Source: a bacterium
GTDB lineage: Bacteria; Patescibacteriota; CPR2; UBA1875; JAJYID01
DNA length: 64,000 bases
Assembly: GCA_030647205.1 (NCBI GenBank)
Contig: JAUSJO010000006.1
Span: 11,163 to 75,162 of the forward strand
Direction of reading: 5' to 3'
A program made the position numbers and the translations under genes. Below are positions 31,280 to 57,742 of the stretch, in pieces (within the stretch, counting starts at the first letter, position 1; each line of letters opens with the position of its first letter). Below the pieces are notes generated by a model. That model was not told the origin of the DNA. It did not search any database and worked only from the letters and a program-made list of their open reading frames with translations.

Positions 31280-31720
31280 TTAACTATTGTCTGTAATGAG
31301 TTTCTGTTGTATCCTCCCTGAGAAAAAGAGAATTTTTTCTCTCTCCTCCGGCTGAAAATACGACAGCACTTTCTCCGCATGATCTTTTGACTCTGTCGAA
31401 TGATTTACAAACGCTTCATTTGACCCGTGGTTTAAAACATAGAGATATCCCCATCTTTCCATGAGCCCTAAAGCGGTTGTTATTTCCGGACTTCTCGGAG
31501 TAGTCTCGCCTGAAGAAAATGTGATACCCCTATCCGCAAAAAACTGAGGATATTCATCAGCTAGTTCACGAAAAGCCGCGTGCATCAGATCCTCATCGTA
31601 CGGAAACTTCTGGTCTGGAAACTCACTTAAAATAACAAACATTAGATCTGAGGAATATATTTCTGCACCTGCCATTTTCTGGCCTCCTAATATTGGGTTT
31701 TCAAGGAGCACCCTCCCCAT
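31280..31720 (-). CDS. Hypothetical protein
   Basis: ORF track only. Confidence 0.4.
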   Translation of the reverse strand: MGRVLLENPILGGQKMAGAEIYSSDLMFVILSEFPDQKFPYDEDLMHAAFRELADEYPQFFADRGITFSSGETTPRSPEITTALGLMERWGYLYVLNHGSNEAFVNHSTESKDHAEKVLSYFQPEEREKILFFSGRIQQKLITDNS

Positions 31721-43497: not shown

Positions 43498-43574
43498 TCT
43501 GGTAGCGGGGGAAGGATTCGAACCTCCGACCTCCGGGTTATGAGCCCGACGAGCTGCCACTGCTCTACCCCGCG
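43498..43574 (-). tRNA. tRNA-Met (anticodon CAU), initiator-type
   Basis: Cloverleaf can be read by hand: T-loop GGTTCGAATCC, anticodon loop CTCATAA, three consecutive G:C pairs at the base of the anticodon stem, and a 1:72 mismatch (C1/U72). Encoded CCA. Confidence 0.8.
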
Positions 43575-43623
43575 TCGCAAATGCCATTCTAGCAGGGTTG
43601 AGCTCTTTTTTCAAGCCTTTACC

Positions 43624-44099: not shown

Positions 44100-44175
44100 G
44101 GGCCCGTAGCTCAGCGGTTAGAGCAGTCGGCTCATAACCGATTGGTCGTTGGTTCGATTCCAACCGGGCCCACCA
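44100..44175 (+). tRNA. tRNA with anticodon CAU, tRNA-Ile2 (lysidine-modified, TilS substrate)-like
   Basis: GGGCCCGTAGCTCAGCGGTTAGAGCAGTCGGCTCATAACCGATTGGTCGTTGGTTCGATTCCAACCGGGCCCACCA closely parallels E. coli ileX (GGCCCCTTAGCTCAGTGGTTAGAGCAGGCGACTCATAATCGCTTGGTCGCTGGTTCAAGTCC...). Confidence 0.7.
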
Positions 44176-44179
44176 ATAT

Positions 44180-44256
44180 GGCAGGGTAGCTCAGTTGGTT
44201 AGAGCACAGGACTCATAAGCCTGAGGTCGTGGGTTCGAATCCCACCCCTGCTACCA
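44180..44256 (+). tRNA. tRNA-Met (anticodon CAU), elongator-type
   Basis: GGCAGGGTAGCTCAGTTGGTTAGAGCACAGGACTCATAAGCCTGAGGTCGTGGGTTCGAATCCCACCCCTGCTACCA resembles the elongator metT pattern. No GGG/CCC anticodon-stem signature. Confidence 0.75.
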
Positions 44257-47679: not shown

Positions 47680-47695
47680 GATTATTTCACTTAAT

Positions 47696-47718
47696 AAAAC
47701 CCGCTAAATGCGGGTTTT
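47696..47718. terminator. Bidirectional rho-independent terminator hairpin (aaaacccgc taaat gcgggtttt) between convergent genes
   Basis: A perfect 9-bp stem flanked by A/T runs on both sides. Confidence 0.65.
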
Positions 47719-47721
47719 ATT

Positions 47722-48489: not shown

Positions 48490-48575
48490 TGTCTTTCTCC
48501 TTTATTATTTTAATATTTTCTTTCTAATAACTAAATTTGGTTTTGGGCGGGCGCTTTCGCGCCCGCCCGCTTGTT

Positions 48576-49799: not shown

Positions 49800-50335
49800 T
49801 GTTTTAACAGCAGAAGATTGCCAAACACTTTGTACCCCACTTCTTCACTCTTGGACATTTCCAAAAGCGTTTCATATGCCGTATCAATGGGTAAAAGAAG
49901 TGGTTTTGTCTGTTCGTTGGCTAGTGGCTCTCGGACTTTGACCGCACCACTGGCAACAACCAGAGATACTCTCTCATCTGTTATGCCGGGTGAGTTAACT
50001 AGCCCTCTGTCTCCACCGATTAAAACCTCTGCGTCTTTAACCTCAAATCCTGTCTCTTCCATCAGTTCTCTGACTGCGGTTTCTAACGTTCCTTCACCGT
50101 CAATGTCCAGAAGTCCTGCCGGAAACTCTATTGTGTCTGAGGCGATCAGTGGTCTTGGCTGCTTAACAAGGATAATCTCTTCATCCTCGGTAATAGCGAC
50201 TATAATCACCGCCTGTGGTGTAGAGCGCCGGACGCCAAACCATTTTTTGTTTGTGTCTTTGAAATCTTCATATTCAAGCTCAACGAATCTGGCGAATGGC
50301 GTTTCAGCCAAAACTTTCTCTTCTACTATTTTCAT
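49769..50335 (-). CDS. NUDIX hydrolase, ADP-ribose pyrophosphatase-like
   Basis: Nudix box GLLDIDGEGTLETAVRELMEETGFEV. Confidence 0.75.
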   Translation of the reverse strand: MKIVEEKVLAETPFARFVELEYEDFKDTNKKWFGVRRSTPQAVIIVAITEDEEIILVKQPRPLIASDTIEFPAGLLDIDGEGTLETAVRELMEETGFEVKDAEVLIGGDRGLVNSPGITDERVSLVVASGAVKVREPLANEQTKPLLLPIDTAYETLLEMSKSEEVGYKVFGNLLLLKQWYAKRKDTK

Positions 50336-50374
50336 TTTGTATCTCCTTTTTCTCTATTCTACCTCAATAGGTTT

Positions 50375-50492
50375 TCAAGGTACATTTTTTGGTGATCCTT
50401 ATCGGACCATGTTGTGAGGGGAATCCGACGGTTGCCGGACGCATGCCATTGCTTTAATCCCCCATTCTTTTTGGAAAAGAATAGCCTTTGTT
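50375..50492 (-). promoter_or_regulatory. Conserved ~115-nt element, copy 1: a 38-nt core (tcaaggtacattttttggtgatccttatcggaccatgt) plus hairpins, upstream of the nudix-pncB-nadE operon
   Basis: Near-identical core and the same hairpin architecture as at 50955-51068. The core ends at a TTGAAA -35-like hexamer when read on the minus strand. Confidence 0.55.
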
Positions 50493-50501
50493 TTAAGCTG
50501 C

Positions 50502-50786
50502 TTAGTTGAGAGCCATTTCGGCTTCGACTGCTTGTGTCATACCGCAGATCACGCACTTCTTGACGAAGCGAACCGTGATATCGTCCGGAGCGACCAAACC
50601 CTTACCTTGCCACTTTGCTTCCGGAATCTCCGTAATAGGATCGAAAACGAATTTCGTGAAAGAGTGCAGGCAAGTGCCCTCAATCATCTTCAGTGTGGTT
50701 TTTTGCCGCTTAAGAAAATCCTGAGCCGCCTCGATGTCTCTTTCAGTATCTGCGATGATCCTTCTGAGTGTTTCTGTATTAGCCAT
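50502..50786 (-). CDS. Hypothetical ~94-aa Cys-containing protein (C...CVICG)
   Basis: ORF track (GTG start at 50795; ATG at 50786). Second gene of a two-gene unit downstream of element copy 2. Confidence 0.35.
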   Translation of the reverse strand: MANTETLRRIIADTERDIEAAQDFLKRQKTTLKMIEGTCLHSFTKFVFDPITEIPEAKWQGKGLVAPDDITVRFVKKCVICGMTQAVEAEMALN

Positions 50787-50791
50787 TTCAA

Positions 50792-50905
50792 TCACTCCTC
50801 TTTTCTCTCAATTTTTTCCATAACCGTTGCCAAATCTCTCTCAAGCTTTGAGATGCGTTCCTGCATGGTCATCGGCCTTACAAAAATCTTTTCTCCCTTA
50901 GCCAT
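50792..50905 (-). CDS. Small ORF (37 aa, MAKGEKIFVRPMTMQERISKLERDLATVMEKIERKEE), not in the ORF track
   Basis: ATG 6 nt after GAAAGGCGG. Its stop (TGA) lies next to the downstream gene's GTG/ATG starts. Confidence 0.3.
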   Translation of the reverse strand: MAKGEKIFVRPMTMQERISKLERDLATVMEKIERKEE

Positions 50906-50954
50906 AACAACCGCCTTTCTCAAAAATTTTGATAATCACTAACAGCTTAAGCTC

Positions 50955-51068
50955 TCAAGGTACATTTGTTGGTGATCCTTATCGGACCATGTATGGAGGG
51001 GATCCCCGGGCTTTTGCCCGGGGTGCTTTGCTAAAGCATTATTCCCCTCGCTTCTTTTTAAAGAAGCA
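50955..51068 (-). promoter_or_regulatory. Conserved ~115-nt element, copy 2, upstream of the small-ORF operon
   Basis: Core tcaaggtacatttgttggtgatccttatcggaccatgt, then a P1 stem (gagggga/tcccctc) enclosing two hairpins, and a distal hairpin gcttcttt/aaagaagc. The arms covary with copy 1 (attctttt/aaaagaat). Confidence 0.55.
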
Positions 51069-51091
51069 GCTACAAGATAGGTATCAGCTGT

Positions 51092-51877
51092 CTAAGGTGC
51101 GGTGAAGAATCCACCGGACGTAACAGCCGACTGGCTAACTTGTATAATAGAATCGCTTACCTGTTGGAAGATCTTCCGGATCTCGGAAGGGCTTGTGCCA
51201 ACCGCGATAACGTCATTGAAACCGATCTCGTCAGCAAGACGCTGCACCTCAGCTTCATCCATCATGCCGTATGTGGTAAAACCGACATAGGCGAGAATGA
51301 ATGTCTCTTGAGCGAGAAGGGCCTTGGTGACCTTTCTGACTTCTGTGTTCGTAACTCTTGAACTGTTATCTTCACCATCGGAGAAGACTACAACCACGTT
51401 CTTGGTACGAACACCGTTGGATCTCAGCTGCTGGCCATAAGCGACTATGCCACTTAAGCCTTTGAGAACCGTGTCGTAAAGCGCTGTCCCGCCGTTCGGG
51501 AAGTAGCTGTTATCCAGATTGGGCGCTTGTTCAACCGGCAGGTAGTCGTGAACTAGATCCGATTGGGTATTGAAAATCCAGTCGGAAATGAAGATGCTCT
51601 CTGCCTTTTTGGAACCCCTCAAGGCATCAAGCAGACCTTCATAGCTCTGAACCACTACGTCACGCGCGCCGCTCATCGAGCCGCTACCGTCATGAATGAC
51701 AGAGACTAGTGTAACCTCGTCCTCGGGGATAAGGTCGATCTCTGTACCTTGACAGCCAGCAAGCGCTACTGCATCGAGGTTTGCTACCATGATCTGACTT
51801 GCCTGTTCATCCAGGCCATCTTCTACTGCTTCCTCGAAGAGATCGTTGACATCATTCATATCAGCCATTTTTGTCAC
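51092..51877 (-). CDS. von Willebrand factor A (vWA) domain protein, TerY-like
   Basis: MIDAS motif DGSGSMSG. Cytoplasmic, ~260 aa. Last gene of the PP2C-kinase-pncA-vWA operon. Confidence 0.7.
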   Translation of the reverse strand: MTKMADMNDVNDLFEEAVEDGLDEQASQIMVANLDAVALAGCQGTEIDLIPEDEVTLVSVIHDGSGSMSGARDVVVQSYEGLLDALRGSKKAESIFISDWIFNTQSDLVHDYLPVEQAPNLDNSYFPNGGTALYDTVLKGLSGIVAYGQQLRSNGVRTKNVVVVFSDGEDNSSRVTNTEVRKVTKALLAQETFILAYVGFTTYGMMDEAEVQRLADEIGFNDVIAVGTSPSEIRKIFQQVSDSIIQVSQSAVTSGGFFTAP

Positions 51878-51891
51878 CTCCTCCTTTTACG

Positions 51892-52881
51892 TTAGCCGAT
51901 CGGATCGGTAGATTTGACTAGCCGTACGCCGAGCTTTTCCATTTCGGCGAGTTCGGCATTGGCGATTTCATCGAACGGAACATCGGGATGTTCCACCGAA
52001 GAGGTGCAGTCCATCAGAAAACGGATTTTGCCGAGGATATCATCCTGACCGGCAAAGTGGTTTACGATGGAGCGCATCGTATCCAGCACACAGTGGCTTT
52101 TCGCCTCGCCGGCTACATAAACCAGGTCGTGTCTGGCAACAAGGTCCAGAAACGGAGTGTTTAAGTCACCGGCCGGGTGCTTGGGATACTTTACTTCGGG
52201 TTCTACGATGGAGTAGTTTTCCGTCTGCGGGATAGAACCCTTGACGAGGAAAACCGGCTGCGAACGCCTGGCAGCGGAGTGGAAGGCAATTGCCTCCATC
52301 AGATTCGGCACCAGTGCCTGACCGGGAGTGCCGATCATGCAGTGGAAGGGCCAGATCATCAGGGTCTTCTTGCCGCCCTTGTCGAGCTCTGTCAGGTATT
52401 TCCGCGTCCATACGGGATCGACTACAGGCCTCCACTTACCATCCTCCACGTCTTTCAGCGTGATCATCGTGTAGGGAGCAGGTGGATTCCCGTTCTCATC
52501 TACCCACCATGTGGAGTAGAAGATCTGAACGGGGATATGCGAGTCGATGCTCGAGGCGATGGTCGTCACTTGATCCAGATTCCGAAAAATCCAGTCAACT
52601 GTCCTTTCTACATCACCGAGAGCATTTGTTACCGGAAGGGCGCCGTTCGGGAAGACGAAGTCGACCTGGAAATCTACATTTACCAGGATGACTTTCTGCT
52701 TATCCTCAGTGGCCGGAGCCACGTTCTGCCGGCGGCCTTCTTCCGTTGCTTCTTGGACCTTCGGTAGTACGAGAGATCCCAAAGTAGAGGGATCATAGAA
52801 AGCTGGAGCTTTCATCTTTTGTTCCTCCTTTTGGAAGTAGTTTTTGGATTTGGCTAACAAGTTTATTTTGCCTTGCCTCAC
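51892..52881 (-). CDS. pncA: Nicotinamidase PncA (isochorismatase-family cysteine hydrolase) with N-terminal extension
   Basis: ILVNVDFQVDF (catalytic Asp region), IWPFHCMIGTPGQAL (PncA WPxHC signature), VAGEAKSHCVLDT (catalytic Cys). Its start overlaps the kinase stop by 4 nt. Confidence 0.7.
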   Translation of the reverse strand: MRQGKINLLAKSKNYFQKEEQKMKAPAFYDPSTLGSLVLPKVQEATEEGRRQNVAPATEDKQKVILVNVDFQVDFVFPNGALPVTNALGDVERTVDWIFRNLDQVTTIASSIDSHIPVQIFYSTWWVDENGNPPAPYTMITLKDVEDGKWRPVVDPVWTRKYLTELDKGGKKTLMIWPFHCMIGTPGQALVPNLMEAIAFHSAARRSQPVFLVKGSIPQTENYSIVEPEVKYPKHPAGDLNTPFLDLVARHDLVYVAGEAKSHCVLDTMRSIVNHFAGQDDILGKIRFLMDCTSSVEHPDVPFDEIANAELAEMEKLGVRLVKSTDPIG

Positions 52882-54722
52882 CTCTTTCTTATCAGGAATA
52901 CTTTATTGTCGCTTACGACAACGATATTCCCCTGAAAGCCGTGGAGTTTTTCATCTCCCTGGATGAATTTGTCAGTTCCGGTAAACTCGAAAGTGCTACC
53001 TTTTGTGAGAGACTTTCCTTTTAGCCCATTTGCCGTGGCAAAAAGAAGCGAACCATTACCTAGGGTCGCACCCTGTAAGTTACCGTGATCTTCATCATTG
53101 TATGGTTCACGACTCTTAAAGAGAGAAACGCCTTTGTCACTTATATAATCAAGTAGGACAAATGCTTTACCTTTCTTTTTCGTCTCACGGATAACCAGAG
53201 TGCCCTTGGTGTCAAACCGGGCATTTAAGGAAACTAGCTTCTCGCCTTTCTCGAGTTCCCTAACATCAGCTTCATAACTGGCTCCGTTTATCAGGACCCG
53301 GTAGACCCACTTATCGAATATCCGACTAACCACTACGAGCTTTTCTTTGTCACCAACAGTTTCTCCATGAAACCAGGTCTGTTCATCGGCTATAGTGGTA
53401 ACAGTTCTGCTAACGAGATTCCCTGCCATCATTTCTGACTTTAGGAGAATACCGCCGGCCGCTCTGTATAGTGAGTCTTTAGTGCCGGATTTTACGGGAT
53501 AGTTTTGGAACAAATCGGTTGTGGTTTTTGTAACCACTGAACCATCATCTGTATCCAAGACTATCAGTCGCTCGGAGCCTTTTCTCAACAAAATTACTTT
53601 GTCGAGAGCAATGTCGAAACCCAGATCGGGAGCTACGGGGAAAAGAACAGTCTTCTGTGTTTTTCCTCCTCTCCATGTATGTAGCACTGCCATTCCATTC
53701 TCGTAGGCAATAGCATAAAGCTTGTTGCCAACTAGTTTGGAGTAGATAAAATGCCCGGACGTCTCAGAAATCATAGATATCTCATAGTCGAGAATAATCT
53801 TCTGATTTATTACAAACGCCGACTTTGTGCTGCATACCGGGCACTGACGCCTACTGTGAGGAAAATACTCATGACACTTAGGACATTCTATTAAGATGCC
53901 GTTATATTCCTCGAGAATGTTCTTTGGAAGTTGGCCTATACGGCCTTTTTCGAAAGTTTTCTCGAAGTATTCAAGCAGTGCGTCAGAAAGTATTTCCCTA
54001 CTTAGGGCAAATTTCGGATAACGCACATCTTTATCAAATGCAGTTACTTTCTTTTTTGCCCTTTCGGTCAGCTGGTTTATCTTGGGGTGAACACCTCCGT
54101 AAGGATGGACTAGAAGTAGTGAACGGAACAGAAGCACTGCGAAGCTGTACCAGTCCGTCTCGGGGGTAAAGACCAAACCACTGGTAAGATCTTTATTATA
54201 GAGAGCCGGACTTAGGAATGGCTCTGTTGCCACTTGGCAAGGAAACCGATCAAACTGAAAGCTATCTACATCTATGAAATAGACTTGGTCTTTCAGGAAG
54301 ATCTCGTTTAAGTCATTTAAGTCTCCAACCACGAAGCCGGCTCTGTGCAGTTTTTCAACTGTACTATAAGCATTCAGAAAGACATCAGTAACATCTTTGA
54401 TATTGATTCCGCTGGTTTTTCTGAAGTTTCGATTGCTCAGTTTCGCCAGCGGTTCTGCCCCAGGATCAGCAAGTGGCATCATATATCCAACCACTCTGCC
54501 GTTTCCTTCCGCTTTTACCAGTTCACGAGGTGCAAGCACCCGATCCGGTAAAAGCGGCCCTTTCTTGAGGAGAGCTTGCAGTTTCTGTGTTTTTTCTCTG
54601 CTCGGCTTGTGGAATATCTTGTATGCAGCCTTTCCTTTCTTTATTACTACTGCCTCGCCACCGGTTCCCAGCACATCTTTCGGGTTGAGATTGATGACTT
54701 TTCCCTGCACCACGACTCTCAT
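52878..54722 (-). CDS. Protein kinase-like (Ser/Thr kinase fold) protein with central zinc-ribbon and a large C-terminal beta-rich domain
   Basis: Gly-loop LGTGGEAVVIKKGKAAYKIF, catalytic-loop-like HRAGFVVGDLNDLN, and a DFG-like IDVDSF. Then CPKCHEYFPHSRRQCPVC. 614 aa. Confidence 0.65.
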   Translation of the reverse strand: MRVVVQGKVINLNPKDVLGTGGEAVVIKKGKAAYKIFHKPSREKTQKLQALLKKGPLLPDRVLAPRELVKAEGNGRVVGYMMPLADPGAEPLAKLSNRNFRKTSGINIKDVTDVFLNAYSTVEKLHRAGFVVGDLNDLNEIFLKDQVYFIDVDSFQFDRFPCQVATEPFLSPALYNKDLTSGLVFTPETDWYSFAVLLFRSLLLVHPYGGVHPKINQLTERAKKKVTAFDKDVRYPKFALSREILSDALLEYFEKTFEKGRIGQLPKNILEEYNGILIECPKCHEYFPHSRRQCPVCSTKSAFVINQKIILDYEISMISETSGHFIYSKLVGNKLYAIAYENGMAVLHTWRGGKTQKTVLFPVAPDLGFDIALDKVILLRKGSERLIVLDTDDGSVVTKTTTDLFQNYPVKSGTKDSLYRAAGGILLKSEMMAGNLVSRTVTTIADEQTWFHGETVGDKEKLVVVSRIFDKWVYRVLINGASYEADVRELEKGEKLVSLNARFDTKGTLVIRETKKKGKAFVLLDYISDKGVSLFKSREPYNDEDHGNLQGATLGNGSLLFATANGLKGKSLTKGSTFEFTGTDKFIQGDEKLHGFQGNIVVVSDNKVFLIRKR

Positions 54723-54725
54723 TTC

Positions 54726-55451
54726 TCACCCTCCTTCCGTCTGGATTTTCTCGATCGTTATCAAGGTTGCATCGTCTGAGAAGTGCTTTTTCTTTGAGTA
54801 AACGTTTAAGAGGCGCTGAACTCCATTTGGATGTTCTTTGCCCCAGAACTCGTTTATCAGCTCCGGCTCAAAGCCGTCACTTGCTATGGCAACTCTCTGA
54901 ACTTTCTGCAGATTAACCTCTATCCTCTTGAAACTGACTTGCTTTCCGAATAGACGGTAAGCGAAGTAGGCCGGTGTGTTATCCTCATCAATGACGAGAA
55001 CATCATCATCAATGAATATAGTTCCATCACCGCTTGAGAATATCACCAGTTTTTTTCCGTCAGTCACAAACCCTAAAATAGTGGCCAAGAGATTATCTTG
55101 GACAAATGGAGTCTGCCACCAGCCCCTTGAAAGTTCATCGAGAAAATCACCTGTTGAATCTTCGATGTGATCAACGATCTCTTCCAAGGACCATCTTTGG
55201 CATATTCTCGGAACTGTGCTTTCACCAAGAATGCTTACTACCCTTTGAACAATGAGATTTGCCCCGACCTCGCTGGTCTTGGCGCTCCCGCATCCATCAG
55301 AGAGAATACCCGCTCGGAGGATTTTTGGTTCTCCGAACAGCGACTTGATTGGTTCCGGCTCATAGATCTGGTAAGCATCCTGACAGTTTTTACCTATCAA
55401 GGAATGTTGCCTTCCTATAACCTTGCCTCCCCTTATTCTAAGAGTGTCCAT
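54726..55451 (-). CDS. PP2C-family (PPM) Ser/Thr protein phosphatase
   Basis: GRQHSLIGKNCQDAY (the RxxxxNxDA motif), SDGCGS, IASDGF, DDATLI. Confidence 0.75.
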   Translation of the reverse strand: MDTLRIRGGKVIGRQHSLIGKNCQDAYQIYEPEPIKSLFGEPKILRAGILSDGCGSAKTSEVGANLIVQRVVSILGESTVPRICQRWSLEEIVDHIEDSTGDFLDELSRGWWQTPFVQDNLLATILGFVTDGKKLVIFSSGDGTIFIDDDVLVIDEDNTPAYFAYRLFGKQVSFKRIEVNLQKVQRVAIASDGFEPELINEFWGKEHPNGVQRLLNVYSKKKHFSDDATLITIEKIQTEGG

Positions 55452-55629: not shown

Positions 55630-55697
55630 TTATACGCTCTTAAAAATCGTTGTCAAGAACTTTTTTCAAAAAAGTCTTATTTTCCCCTATTTCGTGC

Positions 55698-56384
55698 TTA
55701 TTTCTTTAAGAATTGTCCAAATGGATTGCTAATAAATCGAATGTCTTTGTCCGTGAACTGATACATTATTGCCGGACGATGAGCGCCACCCTCTTTCATC
55801 TTTGTGGCCTTGATCATTCCGGTACTTAGGATCTTTCTTCTGAAGTTTCTTTTATCGATATCCCGACCCAAAACTATCTCATAAACTTTCTGAAGATCTG
55901 TCAAAGAAAAGTATTTGGGGAGCAAACTATAAACAACATTTGTATATTCCATTTTCCAGACTAATCTTTTTGTCGCATAGCTCAGTATTTCATTATGATC
56001 AAAAGCGAGTTTTGGAATCTTTTTTAAAGGCTGCCATTTCAATCCTTTAGTATCTTTACCGTTTTTAGCAGACACTGCTTCGGCGCTGACAAGGGCAAAG
56101 TAAGCAATGGAAATTACTCTTCCTCTTGGATCTCTTTTTGGGTCACCAAACGTATAGAGCTGCTCCAGATAGACGTCCTTTACTCCTGTTTTTTCGAATA
56201 AAGTTCTCTGAGCCGCCTCTTCGAGATCTTCTTTTTCACCTACAAAACCTCCCGGAAGAGACCATCCTTCCGGTCCATATGTCCTCTCTACCGTTAAAAC
56301 ATTCAGCTCGTCGTCAATGATCGTAAAGATAACTACGTCCGTAGCAACTGATGGAGGGATAAAATTGTCTTTTTTTCTGCTCAT
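55698..56384 (-). CDS. nrtR: Nudix-related transcriptional regulator NrtR-like (Nudix domain plus C-terminal winged helix)
   Basis: Degenerate Nudix box GGFVGEKEDLEEAAQRTLFEKTGV. C-terminal LTDLQKVYEIVLGRDIDKRNFRRKILSTGMIKAT...GGAHRPAIMYQF matches the NrtR wHTH pattern as I recall it. Sits within an NAD-metabolism neighbourhood. Confidence 0.6.
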   Translation of the reverse strand: MSRKKDNFIPPSVATDVVIFTIIDDELNVLTVERTYGPEGWSLPGGFVGEKEDLEEAAQRTLFEKTGVKDVYLEQLYTFGDPKRDPRGRVISIAYFALVSAEAVSAKNGKDTKGLKWQPLKKIPKLAFDHNEILSYATKRLVWKMEYTNVVYSLLPKYFSLTDLQKVYEIVLGRDIDKRNFRRKILSTGMIKATKMKEGGAHRPAIMYQFTDKDIRFISNPFGQFLKK

Positions 56385-56807: not shown

Positions 56808-57647
56808 TCAGTTTTTGTCATATGCTCTGACGGCTACATTATGGTTAGATAAGTTAAACTTTTTCTCTAACGCCTCATAAAAATGATCTTTGTTAAAAAG
56901 AACCATACGATAATAATGAGATTTTCTAAGCTTCACCACATCTCCCTCTTTTAGAGGAATACCCTTTGATCCGTCAACAGAAAGAAATGCTTCTTCTCCC
57001 TCGATATTTTTAAGCTCAGTAACCTCCGTCTCAGGCACCAGGATTGTGGGGACAGGAAGTCCCTGCGGGCATATGGAAGTGACAAAGAAACATTTTACAC
57101 CCGGAGCGGCAATAGGCCCCCCGGCAGAAAGGTTATATGCGGTGGAACCTGTTGTCGTAGAAACCAAAACGCCGTCTCCTCTAAACTTTACCCGATGAGT
57201 GCCACCCACAGAAACCCCGACAGTTACAACCGAAGATAATCCCTTCACCACTACATCATTTACAACATAATCTGACCTGACAAGATTGCCCCCACTCATA
57301 AGGTCAGCTAAGATCCCGACCCTTTCCTGCAAATGATAATCTTTGCCTTCTTCGCCCTTAACAAATTGAAGAACCTTCTCGGCCGCATCCTCTTCCTCAA
57401 CCACCGCTAGAAATCCTACTCTACCGGCATTAACACCTAAAATAGGGATGTCTTTTTCTTTGGCAAATCGTATTGCTTCTATAATAGTACCGTCACCACC
57501 AATAGCAATAACCGCCTGAACGTCATGATCAGCTTCTTTTGCCGGAACGACTTCTACACCTTCTTTATCCAAAGCAGAGGCAATTACCTTTGAGATCTTG
57601 ACTGCTTTTTCCCTGCCCTCATTTACAACTACTGCTATTTTTTTCAT
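56808..57647 (-). CDS. nadK: NAD+ kinase NadK (PpnK)
   Basis: GGDGT, NDVVV and TTTGSTAYNLSAGGPI motifs. The start is taken at MKKIAVVV (the ORF track extends 15 codons further, to 57692). Confidence 0.8.
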   Translation of the reverse strand: MKKIAVVVNEGREKAVKISKVIASALDKEGVEVVPAKEADHDVQAVIAIGGDGTIIEAIRFAKEKDIPILGVNAGRVGFLAVVEEEDAAEKVLQFVKGEEGKDYHLQERVGILADLMSGGNLVRSDYVVNDVVVKGLSSVVTVGVSVGGTHRVKFRGDGVLVSTTTGSTAYNLSAGGPIAAPGVKCFFVTSICPQGLPVPTILVPETEVTELKNIEGEEAFLSVDGSKGIPLKEGDVVKLRKSHYYRMVLFNKDHFYEALEKKFNLSNHNVAVRAYDKN

Positions 57648-57665
57648 AGTGTTATTATAACACAT
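57647..57665. promoter_or_regulatory. Palindrome TAGTGTTattatAACACA (candidate operator, site 3), abutting the nadK start and containing a TATAAT -10-like hexamer on the minus strand
   Basis: Same half-sites as sites 1 and 2. Also sits in the divergent region shared with the NMNAT-like/MTase gene. Confidence 0.5.
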
Positions 57666-57742
57666 CATATCAAAGTGTCTATTGATCTTCATGCCTCAAA
57701 GATCTAATGCTATAATAACTGAGAAGGCATAACTATAAATCT

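Follow-up and report, generated by a model that had tools for sequence, protein, structure and literature searches.

A covarying structured-RNA candidate upstream of NAD genes in a lineage of candidate division WS5

We describe an intergenic element that occurs twice on the minus strand of a 64-kb segment of bacterial chromosome (42% G+C), which was analysed over its whole length and is called the window below; coordinates refer to the window unless a related contig is named. The element has a conserved secondary structure on the gene-sense strand, kept by real compensatory base changes, and all 13 copies found precede genes of nicotinamide adenine dinucleotide (NAD) metabolism. It is not part of any family described so far. 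By kind it counts among the cis-acting structured mRNA elements, and we regard it as a new structured-RNA candidate with few known members. The explanation that ranks first, held here tentatively, is post-transcriptional control of the downstream cistron by this mRNA element in an NAD operon under putative NrtR control. A sequence-only reading of the window had proposed a conserved RNA or DNA structure with a possible NAD link. Its RNA structure and NAD association were borne out, and its operator or UP element, its -35 box and its placement upstream of two operons lost ground.

Two copies share a core and a fold

Copy 1 follows a gene for a 94-amino-acid (aa) protein and precedes a nudix gene; copy 2 follows a vWA gene and precedes a 37-aa open reading frame (ORF). 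As the sequence-only reading had it, both contain a 38-nucleotide (nt) core, TCAAGGTACATTT[T/G]TTGGTGATCCTTATCGGACCATGT, which matches exactly at 50375-50412 and 50955-50992. No third core was present in the window at up to three mismatches, and 100 shuffles yielded no match at all. A covariance model of the core, run over the 64 kb with filters off, returned the two copies only (71.5 and 66.6 bits), the next best hit having 12.8 bits (E 0.55). Gap-free similarity extends over 55 nt at 87% identity (50368-50422 versus 50948-51002) and stops at the intergenic borders, where unrelated genes begin (94-aa versus vWA upstream, nudix versus 37-aa ORF downstream). The two copies did not arise by a recent duplication that took in coding sequence.

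Their minus-strand folds, again as first described, have the same order of units: a P0 hairpin, a P1 stem enclosing two hairpins, and P2 within the core. Folding z-scores were -2.4 and -4.8 for the two copies. The plus strand of copy 1 was no more stable than expected (z = +0.17). The parts are as follows.

50371-50483, minus: copy 1, intergenic, between the 94-aa gene and nudix
50463-50483, minus: copy 1 P0, UAUUCUUUU / AAAAGAAUG (minimum-free-energy folds), 13 nt past the stop codon of the 94-aa gene
50418-50462, minus: copy 1 P1 domain, GGGGA...UCCCC stem enclosing P1a (GCA/UGC) and P1b (GUCCGGC/GUCGGAU)
50409-50417, minus: copy 1 linker J, UCACAACAU
50394-50408, minus: copy 1 P2, GGUCC-GAUAA-GGAUC
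50389-50393, minus: copy 1 A-CCAA, single-stranded, immediately 3' of P2
50371-50384, minus: copy 1 3' block, UGUACCUUGAAAAC, including ACCUU and the '-35-like' hexamer TTGAAA
50336-50370, minus: copy 1 spacer to nudix, with UUGAGGUA, the partner strand of the block in a local hairpin
50356-50361, minus: TAGAAU box in this spacer
50343-50348, minus: Shine-Dalgarno (SD) sequence AAGGAG in this spacer
50333-50335, minus: nudix ATG
50951-51067, minus: copy 2, intergenic, between the vWA gene and the 37-aa ORF
51050-51067, minus: copy 2 P0, GCUUCUU / AAGAAGC, 3' of the vWA stop codon
50996-51049, minus: copy 2 P1 domain, GAGGGGA...UCCCCUC stem enclosing P1a (UGCUUU/AAAGCA) and P1b (CCCCGGGC/GCCCGGGG)
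50974-50988, minus: copy 2 P2, same sequence as in copy 1
50969-50973, minus: copy 2 A-CCAA
50951-50964, minus: copy 2 3' block, UGUACCUUGAGAGC
50906-50950, minus: copy 2 spacer to the 37-aa ORF, with SD sequence AAAGGCGG at 50911-50918
50903-50905, minus: ATG of the 37-aa ORF

Every related copy precedes an NAD gene

The LepA protein of the window falls into a 90%-identity cluster with a protein of a 'candidate division WS5 bacterium'. Protein searches with the nudix, 94-aa and vWA proteins led to related contigs of this lineage (L010, L015/L016, L017 and L018 to L022). In all there are 13 copies of the element on nine related contigs, each of which carries it; the four closest genomes have two copies apiece and the five more distant ones a single copy. 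With the core covariance model the copies score 48-72 bits, and no further copy was found in the window or in about 71 kb of related loci. Each copy begins just past the stop codon of a vWA or a 94-aa gene. The NAD link, previously a guess from the genes downstream, holds in every relative found, the next genes being nudix-pncB, a pncB-like gene (60-63% identical to that of the window), NMNAT (CTP_transf_like) or nadK.

DNA pattern scans of viral, GTDB and JGI metagenome collections, among which were no complete genomes of the lineage, gave chance matches only and no related copy. The exact core 18-mer matched once in viral contigs and seven times in GTDB genomes, always in unrelated GC-rich or coding sequence without common flanks (16-23 bits with the model), and the three matches of a gapped core pattern in JGI metagenomes were likewise chance. 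A blastn search of the region against phage genomes gave no match. The element is absent from L023, where a nudix relative of 38% identity is set in an unrelated context.

Between the window and L015, fourfold-site identity in the genes flanking copy 1 is 0.39 (94-aa gene) and 0.22 (nudix), at or near saturation. The CCA, the first G of P2 and the CUU of the 3' block are nevertheless invariant. Since neutral divergence is this high, the invariant bases are under selection.

Covariation places the structure on the gene-sense strand

The constant part was read from an alignment of the 13 copies (A5). It starts with linker J, of 5-9 nt, which contains no G in any copy and ends in U in 12 of them. 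P2 follows, a 6-bp stem whose first base is always G and whose A-rich loop has 4-6 nt; then come one unpaired base, an invariant CCA and an A. An A/U linker of 1-6 nt (12 in L021) leads to the 3' block A(C/U)CUU-R-AAAA, which mostly follows UGU and lies 23-56 nt before the start codon. Upstream of this module the form is looser. The base of P1 is always GGGG.../...CCCC. In ten copies the domain forms a three-way junction; L010_up2, L019 and L020 have a plain hairpin of 11-14 bp instead. P0 is restricted to the ten long copies.

The P2 helix was tested as seven pairs over the 13 copies. Pairing is kept in 87.9% of cells, and five of the seven pairs have changed on both sides (15 cells), for example CG in seven copies and GC in six, or CG in six and UA in six. 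None of 500 shuffles reached the covariation score, and slid-register controls gave 32-62% pairing (maximum 61.5%). The five G15-C19 pairs are never broken; P2 has 11 G-U or U-G cells, and there are no A-C cells in these five pairs. Wobble pairs of this kind work on the gene-sense strand only, being A-C mismatches on the other strand or in duplex DNA, which argues that P2 acts as RNA. The stem versions include GGUCC/GGAUC, GGCGCU/AGCGCC, GGUGCU/AGCGCC, GUCCC/GGGGC, GGCGCA/UGCGUC, GACGCU/AGCGUU and GGCGU/ACGUC. The L015 genome alone holds two of them, GGUCC/GGAUC and GGCGCU/AGCGCC. As one DNA-binding protein could not read both, a palindromic operator co-evolving with its protein is excluded, and the earlier suggestion of a composite operator or UP element is not supported.

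The upstream stems behave in the same way, their sequences (P0, P1, P1a and P1b) varying among copies while the fold is unchanged. RNAalifold on the ten long copies recovered the P1/P1a/P1b junction with six of 14 pairs changed on both sides, including an A-U to U-A flip in P1a (six versus four sequences). P0 exists in nine different paired versions, among them AUUCUUU/AAAGAAU, CUAUUCUCGU/ACGAGGAUGG and ACCCCGA/UCGGGGU; it was judged from per-sequence folds, the MAFFT alignment of the full P0-P1 region being too shifted for formal counts. The stems listed in the sequence-only reading were correct, and the covariation seen there between two copies extends to the relatives.

Several further features of the RNA were considered and rejected. 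About eight of the 13 copies have a helix ACAU/AUGU around P2; the others have lost it with no compensating change. The alternative P2 register pairing UGG with CCA reaches 61.5% pairing and is broken in L018 and L020. Pseudoknots of the P1b or P2 loops with the tail were discarded because these loops are not conserved. A conserved mini-ORF from the AUG or UUG of P2 was dismissed as well, its length and frame differing in every copy and no SD sequence preceding it.

A direct repeat G(U/C)ACCU(U/C) flanks the element in L018, L019 and L020 and is absent from the nudix-type copies. In most copies this repeat partly overlaps the Ala-Pro-stop codons of the vWA gene.

Both copies probably lie within one NrtR-controlled operon

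The element sits in a run of minus-strand genes which reads, 5' to 3', nadK, a 130-aa gene, nrtR, a gap of 246 nt, PP2C, a 614-aa kinase-like gene, a 307-aa gene, vWA, copy 2, the 37-aa ORF, the 94-aa Cys/His gene, copy 1, nudix, a pncB-like phosphoribosyltransferase gene and nadE. The features that bear on its transcription are these.

56808-57692, minus: nadK
55698-56384, minus: nrtR, with NUDIX and WHD_NrtR domains
55656-55629, minus: promoter TTGACA-N16-TATAAT, 12/12 consensus, in the gap upstream of PP2C
55629-55611 and 55581-55563, minus: two palindromes TAGTGT-N7-ACACTA with perfect arms, directly after the promoter
51092-51877, minus: vWA gene

The promoter at 55656 is the only 12/12 match of the cluster. 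The palindrome pair recurs at the same place in L015 (5179/5226), L017 (3473/3520) and L018 (2404/2465), so that in four genomes it stands just downstream of nrtR and upstream of PP2C. NrtR sites are DNA palindromes of about 21 bp with a GT-N7-AC core (PMC2330246), and from their sequence the TAGTGT-N7-ACACTA palindromes are likely NrtR operators. A search for TAGTG-N9-CACTA with at most one arm mismatch found sites upstream of PP2C and nadK only and none in the element. The nrtR gene lies 5 kb and the candidate operators 4.5 kb upstream of the element. A link of the element itself to NrtR binding is not supported, the candidate operators being at the promoter (55656-55563). A NiaR operator was rejected, since neither TGT-N4-ACA nor ACA-N5-TGT cores are present and NiaR genes were not seen.

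A scan detected no promoter-like or terminator-like site at either window copy (for terminators, minus strand 50330-51100), and a terminator-like hairpin stands 3' of nadE at 47693-47721. PP2C to nadE is probably one long NrtR-controlled operon transcribed from 55656, with both copies inside it, rather than two operons each headed by a copy as originally proposed. The locus seems to combine two levels of control, a classical NrtR repressor acting at the promoter of the operon and an RNA element before individual NAD cistrons. As the lineage carries NAD salvage genes, control of salvage is likely to be central to its physiology.

The element matches no described family

As the sequence-only reading had anticipated for riboswitches, no described class could be recognised. 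At the gathering threshold Rfam 15 finds three tRNAs and nothing else in the whole window, and in region 50250-51200 at E<=10 it gives four chance-level matches of 13-17 bits. The models of the NAD+-I (nadA motif) and NAD+-II (pnuC motif) riboswitches gave no match even at E<=10. Like these two classes, the element is a cis structure in the mRNA before NAD genes, with a small hairpin core, a variable loop and an A-rich tail. In NAD+-II an internal loop, J1, lies between P1 and P1a, and its 3-bp pseudoknot with the SD sequence is the short pairing that hides the ribosome-binding site (PMC7749635, PMC9841397). The P2 stem of the element, by contrast, is free of internal loops in all 13 copies; the conserved bases lie to either side of the hairpin, with ACCUU, the candidate partner of the SD sequence, on the 3' side. 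The element is, moreover, intercistronic, in contrast to both classes, and binding of a ligand is only a candidate function. The hosts differ as well, candidate division WS5 here and Streptococcus and Acidobacteria for the known NAD+ riboswitches.

In five related loci, Rfam 15 at E<=1 gave Histone3 (RF00032) only, at 26.9 bits (E 6e-4; threshold 34 bits), on L022 1337-1382, where the hairpin reads GGCGCU-AAAA-AGCGCC-ACCAA. Common to the element and the histone mRNA 3' stem-loop are a stem of 6 bp (GG...CC), a loop of 4 nt and ACC(C)A on the 3' side. That family is eukaryotic and needs SLBP and U7 snRNP, and a single variant of the element scores, below threshold; the match is a convergent look-alike of the metazoan structure, in shape only. 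Intrinsic terminators are no better a fit, since P1 and P2 lead into C/A-rich or A-rich sequence without a U-run.

The element may tune translation of the next cistron

The favoured explanation, which we consider plausible though somewhat short of probable, is as follows. The element would be transcribed from the promoter at 55656 as a segment between cistrons of a long NAD-salvage operon. Its constant module (the G-free linker, P2, N-CCAA, the A/U linker and A(C/U)CUU-R-AAAA) would tune the next NAD cistron after transcription. The ACCUU of the block, complementary to the SD core and in effect a shortened anti-SD sequence, could base-pair with the ribosome-binding site at AAGG or AGGU. P2 and its invariant flanks would be the recognition site of a putative effector, an NAD-pathway metabolite or a protein, that decides whether ACCUU and the SD sequence pair. 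The GC-rich P0/P1 domain might insulate the module from ribosomes finishing the upstream gene. A pathway-specific regulator is favoured because the link is exclusive to four kinds of NAD genes.

Two observations on the block speak for such a role. In L020, L019, L018 and L010_up2 only 23-36 nt separate it from the start codon, so it must be in the mRNA there. Ensemble predictions give strong ACCUU-SD pairing in L015_up1 (3.76 of 4 bases), L022, L020 and L010_up2, and in L021 the block reads AUCUU and the SD sequence AAGAGG, a matching change. The general traits of riboswitches are also present, namely covarying stems, invariant unpaired bases and a constant link to one pathway.

A number of points weigh against this explanation. 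The pairing between block and SD sequence involves 4-5 bp only, any pyrimidine run can pair with an SD sequence, and the ensemble predicts almost no such pairing in six of the 13 copies. The nudix-type copies pair ACCUU with the nearby UUGAGGUA instead, a predicted pairing that could be the 'on' alternative. With P1 reduced to a plain hairpin in three copies and the P2 loop variable, the constant core would be tiny for a ligand pocket. The relatives are few and partly close, so independent changes are modest in number, though several distinct stem versions exist. The case for co-transcription consists of short spacers together with the absence of promoter and terminator matches. Finally, genuine promoters of this genome also have CTTGAMAA as their -35 context, and a -10-like hexamer is workably spaced in three copies.

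A bolder form of this explanation sees in the element both aptamer and expression platform of an NAD-pathway riboswitch, of a third class unrelated in structure to the known ones. We think this unlikely and place it slightly below the tRNA-end mimic discussed next. Candidate ligands would be NAD+, nicotinamide mononucleotide (NMN) or nicotinic acid mononucleotide (NaMN), nicotinamide or ADP-ribose, acting gene by gene inside the operon on top of NrtR control. Binding of a metabolite would make the element a new class of NAD-related riboswitch, one whose constant core is very small. A literature search turned up no riboswitch reports for the candidate phylum WS5.

Alternative explanations

The nearest competitor, unlikely but clearly ahead of the remaining ones, is a tRNA-end-like signal for RNA processing or stability in which P2 and N-CCA resemble an acceptor-stem minihelix. 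RNase P might cut the operon mRNA between U(-1) and G(+1), so that P0/P1 would cap the upstream piece and a protective hairpin would begin the downstream one, or the enzymes that trim tRNA 3' ends might stop at CCA and leave a stable 3' end. Bacterial RNase P prefers U(-1), G(+1) and a 3' RCCA that pairs with L15 (PMC10731613). The element fits these preferences with U(-1) in 12 of the 13 copies, G(+1) and CCA in all of them and a purine discriminator in nine, although the discriminator is U in the other four. RNase P is known to cut hairpins other than tRNA, including one in the hisCD operon mRNA, the 4.5S precursor and the pbuE riboswitch, so that a polycistronic mRNA is processed and the stability of its parts altered (PMC10731613); the element is likewise a hairpin in mRNA. 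Further support comes from the CCA and A/U-rich trailers of the window tRNAs (ACCAAUAU, ACCAAAAAAUACC), which resemble ACCAAAAAAUGUACC of the element, and from the sub-threshold score of Histone3, a 'stem + ACCCA' end-forming signal, on the P2 of L022. RNase P measures a helix of 12 bp (PMC10731613), however, about twice the 6-7 bp present here, and a T-loop mimic is lacking. Neither ARAGORN nor the Rfam tRNA model finds a tRNA at the element, and both the additional conserved block ACCUU-R-AAAA and the exclusive position before NAD genes are left unexplained. Should this explanation be right, 'tRNA-like punctuation' of a bacterial operon mRNA would have a clear natural example in the element. 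Either way, it is a compact RNA with a constant module of about 45 nt for which natural covariation is already available.

Rather improbable is a composite in which the hairpins serve to stabilize or terminate the upstream transcript and an internal promoter for the downstream NAD genes uses the block as its -35 box (cTTGAAA). This takes up the TTGA(A/G)A hexamer of the sequence-only reading, which had placed it 40-80 nt before the start codon; it starts 43 and 53 nt before the start codons at the two window copies. CTTGAMAA is the -35 context of good promoters in the window (tRNA-Met at 43615, PP2C at 55657, and 2758). Candidate -10 boxes occur in L022 (TTGAAA-N16-TAGAAT), L021 (TTGAAA-N17-CAGAAT) and window copy 2 (TTGAGA-N18-TATCAA), and all six nudix- or nadK-type copies carry a (T/C)A(G/A)AAT box 16-20 nt upstream of the start codon. 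In four nudix-type copies, however, TTGAAA and TAGAAT are only 11 nt apart, and L010_up2, L018, L019 and L020 have no -10 box, their 23-36 nt to the start codon leaving no room for one and a transcription start before the ribosome-binding site. Judged by the 16-18 nt between the -35 and -10 boxes of sigma-70 promoters, three of the 13 copies are workable by eye and four have no room, and the promoter scan finds none at the window copies. Conservation does not follow the hexamer either, the ACC/CC and ACCUU being better conserved than the G of TTG and TTG itself. No hairpin of the element precedes a U-run, though the lineage has canonical terminators (L019 2457-2486), and the invariant CCAA would be unexplained.

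A double-stranded DNA operator for NrtR or another transcription factor is very improbable: an nrtR gene is in the same cluster and the element precedes NAD genes, yet P2 changes in sequence with pairing kept, even within one genome, and relies on G-U pairs, the loop length and the CCAA-to-block spacing vary, and the NrtR-type palindromes of four genomes are confined to the PP2C promoter. Equally remote is a mobile or recombination repeat (an attachment or cassette site, or a sequence like miniature inverted-repeat transposable elements or repetitive extragenic palindromes), to which one might ascribe that two copies bracket a variable module (37-aa and 94-aa genes, or NMNAT, 113-aa and 94-aa genes), that cores are identical and arms differ as at attL/attR, and that more distant relatives have a single copy; against it, both copies in the 64 kb lie in the NAD operon, no other was found in the related loci or by the viral, genome and metagenome scans, there is no integrase or transposase gene, terminal inverted repeat or consistent target duplication, and the position relative to the start codon is conserved.

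Neighbouring genes and further observations

The window also encodes LepA, FtsH, TilS, MurJ, a type IV pilus ATPase and three tRNA-Met. The remaining features of interest are listed below.

51092-55451, minus: signalling triad of vWA, the 614-aa kinase-like gene and PP2C
50792-50905, minus: small ORF after copy 2, 37 aa from ATG (L015: 9886-10023)
50502-50783, minus: 94-aa gene (relatives P0017-P0020)
48544-48569: GC-rich 11-bp hairpin between the pncB-like gene and nadE
43500-43574, minus, and 44100-44256, plus: three tRNA-Met genes within 760 bp

The signalling triad is embedded in the apparent NAD-salvage operon and, from the gene layout, seems to be co-transcribed with the salvage genes, an unusual pairing. 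It is accompanied there by the 307-aa gene, whose product has nicotinamidases as its sole PDB sequence matches (E 0.014-0.12). Fourfold-site identity between the window and L015 is uneven for genes across 47.7-56.4 kb, with 0.80 for the 307-aa gene, 0.67 for vWA and the kinase and 0.21-0.22 for nrtR and nudix. This mosaic divergence suggests recombination between lineages within the operon.

The 37-aa ORF is conserved between the window and L015 (RPMTxQER..LE) and is probably a real small protein; NMNAT replaces it in L010 and L017. The 94-aa protein has four relatives only, among 5.8 billion proteins, and its gene always lies between two copies of the element. C39, H41, C78 and C81 are invariant, and the N-terminal helix is long; the AlphaFold model (predicted local distance difference test score, pLDDT, 64) is too poor to support a fold search. 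A 113-aa protein of L010 resembles a paralogue of it.

All three tRNA-Met genes encode the 3' CCA followed by the A/U-rich trailers, and the promoter of the minus-strand gene reads CTTGAAA-N17-TAGAAT. Elsewhere, CCTTGAAAACC, equal to the 3' block of copy 1, recurs at about 31696-31706 (minus), 24 nt before the ATG of gene 31280-31720, where it directly precedes the ribosome-binding site without a P2-like hairpin (model score about 10 bits). Within the vWA gene, TGTACCTTGA(CA) recurs in inverted orientation (51743-51757, plus) and reads as a TTGACA -35-like box on the antisense strand; with about 0.1 such copies expected per window it is probably due to chance. The hairpin at 48544-48569 has a T-run on the antisense (plus) strand only, as does the P1 hairpin of L010_up2, and both may block antisense transcription.

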